Of a stretch of 64,000 nucleotides of DNA, positions 60,403-60,607 are shown piece by piece. The notes beneath the pieces are model-generated. The model did no database searches, was not told the origin of the DNA, and saw only the letters and a list, made by a program, of their open reading frames with translations. Each line of letters begins with the position of its first letter. The stretch's first letter is position 1. The position numbers and the translations under genes were made by a program. The stretch lies in the NCBI RefSeq assembly GCF_003334255.1, contig NZ_QOWU01000004.1, one strand, 5' to 3'. The DNA comes from Escherichia coli (GTDB lineage: Bacteria; Pseudomonadota; Gammaproteobacteria; Enterobacterales; Enterobacteriaceae).

Positions 60403-60465
60403 ATTAACGTAAGGTGATCAGGTCAGATTTCAATCTGGCCTGAGACTGATGACAAACACAAAACT

Positions 60466-60554
60466 GCCTGATGCGCTACGCTTATCAGGCCTACGTGGTT
60501 TATGCAATATATTGAATTTGCATGGTCTTGTAGGCCAGATAAGACGTTCACGTC
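60466..60554. repeat. BIME (two REP elements)
   Basis: gcctgatgcgctacgcttatcaggcctac ... gtaggccagataagacgttcacgtcgcatccggc; near-identical to the BIME at 9395..9484. Confidence 0.7.
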
Positions 60555-60607
60555 GCATCCGGCATGAACAAAGCGCACTTTGTCAAAAATCTAACCTACT
60601 TTTTAAT

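Follow-up and report, generated by a model that had tools for sequence, protein, structure and literature searches.

Downstream of glpD, the gene for aerobic glycerol-3-phosphate dehydrogenase, a short hairpin is followed by a repeated sequence, and the locus raises the question of how the glpD mRNA acquires its 3' end and what kind of element the repeat is. REP and BIME elements have been in the literature since the 1980s-90s. A preliminary description of this DNA had presented the repeat as one member of a BIME pair and the hairpin as the probable glpD terminator. We analyzed the whole stretch of DNA in which the locus lies (64,000 nucleotides, hereafter the window), whose sequence matches E. 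coli K-12 MG1655 at 100% identity over genome positions 3,503,117-3,567,116. Window coordinates equal genome coordinates (NC_000913.3) minus 3,503,116, which places the end of glpD (60402) at 3,563,518. The repeat is extragenic and occupies the gap between the convergent genes glpD and yzgL, within the glpD 3' UTR (Table 1). Our joint reading of the locus, to which we give a probability of about 0.85, is that the repeat is a BIME-1 element (RIB/RIP), catalogued as REP256, and that the glpD mRNA is produced by Rho-dependent termination and trimming.

Anatomy and family of the repeat

REPs in the window were searched with a regex scan, which returned 11 units in three length and loop classes (Table 1); a fixed-length REP pattern had found 1 site only because the REP classes vary in length. 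At glpD, the scan identified a 29-nt unit and an inverted 34-nt unit, which we assign to the y and z1 REP types, respectively, from the published description (PMC3333891) and the consensus sequences. The GTAG heads of both units face the 35-nt linker, and GGCCTAC/GTAGGCC ends are present in both, as expected for a REP, which is an imperfect palindrome of 30-40 nt whose GTAG foot is conserved. The folding energy was -13.2 kcal/mol for the y REP and -12.6 kcal/mol for the z1 REP, and 0 matches to the 29-nt left REP are expected in 100 shuffles with 3 mismatches tolerated. The whole BIME folds with an energy of -46.4 kcal/mol (z -6.9) as a long y:z1 hairpin capped by the linker palindrome. Separate REP hairpins and the long y:z1 duplex are both 93-94% paired, and the 9 orthologous and paralogous copies compared are too few to choose between the two folds.

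Table 1. Coordinates of the features discussed in the text (window positions; genome positions refer to NC_000913.3).
Feature	Position	Strand	Remarks
glpD CDS	58897..60402	+	NC_000913.3 3562013-3563518
Unique hairpin	60418..60443	+	12-nt arms, 2-nt loop, 92% complementary
Full repeated unit at glpD	~60442..60595		~154 nt; left flank motif, y REP, L linker, z1 REP, right flank motif
y-type REP	60466..60494	+	29 nt, GCCTGATGCG...GGCCTAC; regex scan
L linker	60495..60529		35 nt, distance between the REPs; internal palindrome TGCAA..TTGCA
IHF-consensus-like core	60505..60517	-	ATTCAATATATTG; 12/13 matches to WATCAANNNNTTR; sequence match only
z1-type REP, inverted	60530..60563	-	34 nt, GCCGGATG...GTGAAC
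Term-seq 3' end, 'primary' for glpD	60446 = 3563562	+	2103.8 reads; 3 nt past the hairpin; PMC7815308 supplementary file 1
Term-seq 3' end, stronger	60569 = 3563685	+	3299.9 reads; ~6 nt past the z1 REP; PMC7815308 supplementary file 1
Rho-dependent termination region, best coordinate	60944 = 3564060	+	Rho score 8.36, p = 2.9e-77; coarse (800-nt windows); PMC7815308 supplementary file 2
yzgL, convergent neighbour of glpD	60608..60889	-	
glgP, next after yzgL	61018-63465	-	
trpS-downstream paralogous copy	9370..9515		linker only 27 nt (9423-9449)
Third, more diverged BIME-1	~22330..22482		opposite orientation to the other two
Parts of the third copy	22361-22394; 22430-22458		z1 REP; y REP; between them a 35-nt linker with ACTCAATAAATTG
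29-nt REP class (y), 3 units	9394, 22430, 60466		start GCCTGATG
34-nt REP class (z1), 5 units	9450, 22361, 36629, 44770, 60530		GTGAAC or GTGACC loop
36-37-nt REP class (z2), 3 units	1669-1704, 43105-43140, 44820-44856		
Sub-threshold ES036 matches	60487-60529; 22395-22437	-; +	

BIME-1 elements are defined as single-copy units in which a z1 and a y REP are arranged as inverted repeats around a long conserved linker, L, which often contains an IHF site (Ton-Hoang et al., PMC3333891); the same definition is given by Nunvar et al. (PMC2817692). The length and loop classes of the y, z1, and z2 units in the window fit the classes of PMC3333891 and this definition. The glpD copy has a y and a z1 REP in inverted orientation, the long conserved L linker, which can be aligned with those of the entD-fepA and mrcA-nudE copies, an IHF consensus, and a single unit. 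It does not conform to BIME-2 because its second REP belongs to the 34-nt class, its linker measures 35 nt, and it stands as a single unit. The preliminary description was therefore right in calling the feature a BIME, and the element can be specified as BIME-1. A REP256 after glpD, with the two REPs REPv256a and REP256b, is listed in PMC10100675 (2023), so the feature is already catalogued. The glpD BIME-1 is thus an already known element, and an ordinary one because it is one of dozens of genomic copies. In the RefSeq annotation of NC_000913.3, repeat features are absent at both the glpD site and the trpS site.

The repeat reported in the preliminary description is real: 60455-60570 aligns with 9381-9500, downstream of trpS, with a mean column identity of 87% over approximately 150 nt, a single 7-nt gap located in the linker, and an identical 29-nt left REP. 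Those coordinates stand, but the repeated unit is longer than the 116 nt assigned to it and the REPs occupy only part of it (Table 1). A 701-nt glpD query found its best match, in some genomes, in the BIME-1 between entD and fepA, which aligns over query positions 143-296, and this alignment sets the length of the repeated unit at about 154 nt, including conserved flanks beyond the REPs. Over this unit, identity to the glpD copy is 90% for the entD-fepA copy, 81% for the trpS copy, and 72% for the mrcA-nudE copy. Presenting the glpD and trpS copies as a pair was misleading, since the window contains three such elements and the family is dispersed. With a 51-nt query spanning the linker and the REP heads, each K-12 genome gave at least 40 matching places, and the median over the 5,426 complete E. 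coli genomes was 26. In keeping with a highly repeated sequence, the megablast searches gave 7-42 places per genome. The two flagged sites are therefore family members and not a special pair.

The 3 copies in the window differ in their linkers and surroundings. In the trpS copy, a 7-nt deletion in the linker removes the IHF-like core, and the Rfam ES036 match is absent; in the direction of the trpS transcript, a canonical terminator hairpin with its T run (9370-9349, minus strand) lies beyond this copy, which sets it apart from the glpD copy. The third copy lies between an 858-aa ORF (19730-22306), labelled mrcA in the tables of Adams et al. 2021 (PMC7815308), and nudE; its linker is full-length and scores 27.4 bits against ES036.

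At the gathering threshold, no Rfam family was found in the whole 64-kb window. Below it, the glpD linker matches ES036 (CssrF, RF02751) with 31 bits against a gathering score of 37.6, and the z1 REP matches naRNA4 (CssrE, RF02564) with 29.5 bits against a gathering score of 59.5. These matches are family resemblance only, without membership. The 43-nt consensus of ES036 is in essence the BIME-1 L linker plus the GTAGGCCT REP head, and this "sRNA" family thus appears to describe a repeat fragment. Three ORFs cross the BIME, of 80 aa (60449-60691, plus strand), 51 aa (60423-60578, minus strand), and 42 aa (60430-60558, minus strand), and they are probably spurious frames encoded by the repeat. 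In one E. coli record, a stretch matching a REP carries the annotation "protein YahH". We would caution that REP-derived ORFs and sub-threshold matches to sRNA families at repeats should not be read as genes.

RNA 3' ends and Rho-dependent termination downstream of glpD

The hairpin that had been proposed as the glpD terminator (ggtcagat-ttca-atctggcc) is present at 60421-60440, as described, and contains one G.U pair. As delimited here (Table 1), it starts 16 nt past the glpD stop codon and has an energy of -17.9 kcal/mol (z = -3.7). A G-to-A change found in other strains converts the G.U pair into an A-U pair and keeps the stem. The 3' tail of the hairpin, GAGACTGATGAC, is without a U tract and thus fails the U-tract test for an intrinsic terminator, and a consensus scan of 60300-61050 found 0 terminator-like sites.

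The Term-seq data of PMC7815308 place two 3' ends in the glpD 3' UTR, one just past the hairpin, classed as primary, and a stronger one just past the BIME (Table 1). The coordinate convention of these data, in which the 3' end is position 51 of the printed 61-mer, was confirmed on the SgrS terminator. Both glpD 3' ends are listed once, in one of three growth conditions, which from the position in the file we take to be the LB OD 0.4 sheet. The same study reports a Rho-dependent termination region further downstream, the best coordinate of which (3564060) has a coarse resolution because such regions were mapped in 800-nt windows. Reads upstream and downstream of this coordinate were 506 and 73 without bicyclomycin, and 793 and 956 with bicyclomycin (PMC7815308). 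There is thus a precise 3' end at 60446, yet the read-through downstream of it is Rho-dependent. The bicyclomycin read-through indicates that much of glpD transcription passes the hairpin and the BIME, and that Rho stops the polymerase further on. The proposal that the hairpin is the glpD terminator is therefore partly supported. A stable 3' end lies just past the hairpin, at 60446, which makes the predicted role half right, but the hairpin has no U tract, the end at 60569 is stronger, and the Rho region lies at about 60944. What emerges is a glpD mRNA with two mapped 3' ends, one past the hairpin and one past the BIME, and with Rho termination beyond them.

Genome-wide, Rho-terminated mRNAs end just past stem-loops free of a U tract as a result of exonuclease trimming, and about one quarter of these protective stem-loops are REPs (PMC6061677, Dar and Sorek 2018). 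glpD is among the REP-bearing transcripts that rise as RNA decay slows (PMC10100675). At two other REP loci in the window, published Term-seq 3' ends fall on the REP edge or just beyond it, at 43140 (3546256) and 44864 (3547980), and the Rho regions there have almost identical coordinates (3546293 and 3547979). A Rho region on the minus strand at 3524915 (window 21799) lies approximately 550 nt beyond the mrcA-nudE BIME-1. These sites show the same pattern as glpD.

The glpD flank across E. coli genomes

Of the 5,426 complete E. coli genomes, 1,594 contain the hairpin with the left flank of the BIME (60403-60465), each as a single copy. In 3,035 (56%), glpD has a BIME-free flank, which diverges right after the glpD stop codon and consists of a 53-nt spacer with a GC-rich hairpin and a T run. 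The remaining genomes include diverged BIME alleles that megablast did not detect, such as those of EC17CM2 and CB8671. Since more than half of the genomes carry the BIME-free flank, the element is dispensable for glpD expression. The alternative flank (L004 562-614, L005 1187-1239) reads GCCCGGTTG-tgaagtg-CAACCGGGC followed by TATTTGGATT. Its hairpin looks like an ordinary intrinsic terminator, possibly a bidirectional one that is common to the convergent hypothetical gene.

The arrangement of hairpin plus BIME is also present in two other Escherichia species-level representatives, which points to an old arrangement. Neither the 5,426 E. coli genomes nor the representatives of other species yielded an empty site. 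We considered an insertion of the BIME that separated a terminator stem from its T run (TTTTT, 60600-60604); this idea was rejected as weak, since there is no empty site and a notional excision of the BIME would still leave the T run approximately 5 nt away from the hairpin stem. Altogether, the polymorphism of the element accords with a mobile origin, and its local effect on the end of the mRNA is modest.

Among six orthologs of the glpD copy, the y REP has 0 variable columns, the linker has 4, and the z1 REP has 9. Compared with the orthologs, the K-12 z1 REP carries an A.C mismatch and a compensatory G-C to A-T change. At one position of the z1 stem, the pair is G-C in MOD1-EC7003, T-A in NZRM3614 and E1V33, and A.C in K-12, and at a second stem position it is either G-C or A-T (K-12, CB8671). 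In EC17CM2 and CB8671, the z1 arm has degenerated.

Beyond the BIME, the preliminary description had noted a small membrane ORF, which corresponds to yzgL. Its product is hydrophobic, but yzgL is not an intact gene. It is the fusion left by a deletion of approximately 2.84 kb, with the junction at about 60668-60681, and this K-12-type form is found in 1,256 of the 5,426 genomes. The 5' part of yzgL derives from a 502-aa PstS-family gene, of which it keeps the first ~74 codons, and the 3' part from the final portion of a 200-aa hypothetical gene. Other E. coli strains still carry both genes (L003 9318-12446), and PstS-family proteins and small hypothetical proteins there form a three- or four-gene operon. 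The annotation of a membrane ORF next to the repeat is thus that of a deletion remnant. In one K-12-like genome (NZ_OY754443.1, 311185-312661), an IS1-family transposase insertion splits the glpD-yzgL stretch.

The gap between glpD and glgP has at least four different gene contents (L003 9104-12570, L004 562-4350, L005 1187-4350, and L007 3604-7278): the K-12 deletion; PstS (502 aa), PstS (330 aa), and a hypothetical protein (200 aa); PstS (502 aa) and two or three other hypothetical genes; and a fimbrial operon, seen in 228 genomes. The breakpoint of the fimbrial form falls at the right edge of the BIME, and in the BIME-free form the sequences diverge at the glpD stop codon. That the arrangement in CB8671 is a misassembly was rejected because 228 genomes share it. 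The variable operon was also considered as a defence system, and this was rejected because there were no PADLOC hits and the PstS-family similarity was only below the cut-off. These boundaries could suggest an old polymorphism that has been maintained, with the hairpin and the BIME-1 as its fixed left boundary; the BIME-1, through REP recombination or cleavage by TnpA-REP, would then delimit cassette exchange by recombination, a scenario that we regard as highly improbable.

Possible roles of the element and its relation to known systems

We propose that RNA polymerase would read past the upstream hairpin and then past the BIME, and that Rho would terminate transcription some hundred nt further, antisense to yzgL and to the yzgL-glgP spacer. 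Exonucleases acting from 3' to 5' would then trim the tail back to the BIME (60569) and, in a fraction of the molecules, to the hairpin (60446), and the trimmed ends would protect the glpD mRNA. The L linker would probably provide a predicted IHF bending site between the convergent units. The anatomy, the family membership, the copy number, the two RNA 3' ends, the missing U tract, and the Rho dependence of the downstream read-through are established by the present analysis or by the cited data; exonucleolytic trimming at glpD, stabilisation of its mRNA, and binding of IHF to the glpD copy are steps that we infer.

Two other explanations concern the RNA. The hairpin could be a factor-independent terminator of glpD, with the BIME a passive sequence that is seen only through rare read-through. 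Its stability, its presence as a single copy per genome, the G.U to A-U change that preserves the stem in other strains, and a Term-seq end of the primary class 3 nt after it all agree with such a function, but the lack of a U tract and of terminator-like sites, the higher number of reads at the BIME end than at the hairpin end (3300 and 2104, respectively), and the approximately 13-fold increase in plus-strand read-through produced by bicyclomycin (from 73 to 956 reads) make this distinctly improbable. Alternatively, the BIME itself would provoke Rho termination or attenuation, and 60569 would be the true termination point and not a trimmed end. REPs and BIMEs have been reported to facilitate Rho-dependent termination, according to work cited in passages of PMC2817692 and PMC6061677, and both the stronger 3' end at the BIME edge and the Rho dependence of the read-through accord with this. 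However, the best Rho coordinate, at its coarse resolution, is approximately 375 nt downstream of the BIME, and the genome-wide data favour downstream termination followed by trimming (PMC6061677); we therefore consider a direct action of the BIME on Rho unlikely.

The remaining explanations shift the weight from the RNA to the DNA or deny the element a role. The BIME may matter mainly as DNA, through a predicted IHF bend and architectural or supercoil insulation, with the RNA ends as a by-product. The linker agrees with the IHF consensus at 12 of 13 core positions, IHF binding has been reported for BIME-1 linkers (PMC3333891, PMC2817692), BIMEs have been proposed as supercoiling barriers (PMC6907758), and in the six orthologs an invariant y REP and a near-invariant linker accompany a variable z1 REP. 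Against this, the IHF consensus by itself is weak evidence, with 71 matches at one mismatch or fewer in the window compared with about 45 expected, the trpS copy persists without the core, and most E. coli genomes have no element at glpD; PMC8407004, consulted for IHF binding to the glpD copy, does not mention the locus. We see a primarily architectural role as possible, though doubtful. About as tentative is the idea that the BIME is a relic, selfish or neutral, of a non-autonomous repeat that TnpA-REP/RAYT has spread, and that it serves no selected function at glpD. It would explain a dispersed multi-copy family, a polymorphic site, and a z1 arm that has degenerated in EC17CM2 and CB8671, and it agrees with the cleavage and recombination of BIMEs by TnpA-REP in vitro (PMC3333891) and with the proposal that BIMEs are non-autonomous transposable elements (PMC2817692). 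Yet the hairpin plus BIME is kept in the two other Escherichia lineages, orthologs show double changes that preserve the stem, no empty site was seen, and a stable RNA 3' end forms at the BIME edge. A mobile origin is, moreover, compatible with a present effect on the mRNA.

The reading that we prefer, a BIME-1 with Rho termination beyond it and trimming back to it, relates the locus to several known systems. With intrinsic terminators, glpD shares a stable hairpin and an RNA 3' end just past it, but it differs from them in lacking a U tract and in its Rho-dependent read-through. The similarity is closer to the protective 3' stem-loops described by Peters et al. and by Dar and Sorek (2018), which are likewise without a U tract and have 3' ends nearby and bicyclomycin-sensitive termination downstream; at glpD, trimming by PNPase or RNase II would be the corresponding step. 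[quoted passage not shown] As a DNA element, the glpD copy corresponds to BIME-1 (RIB/RIP), a single extragenic unit at the 3' end between convergent genes with conserved flank motifs, from which it differs in nothing essential, the z1 stem of K-12 being only slightly damaged by one A.C mismatch.
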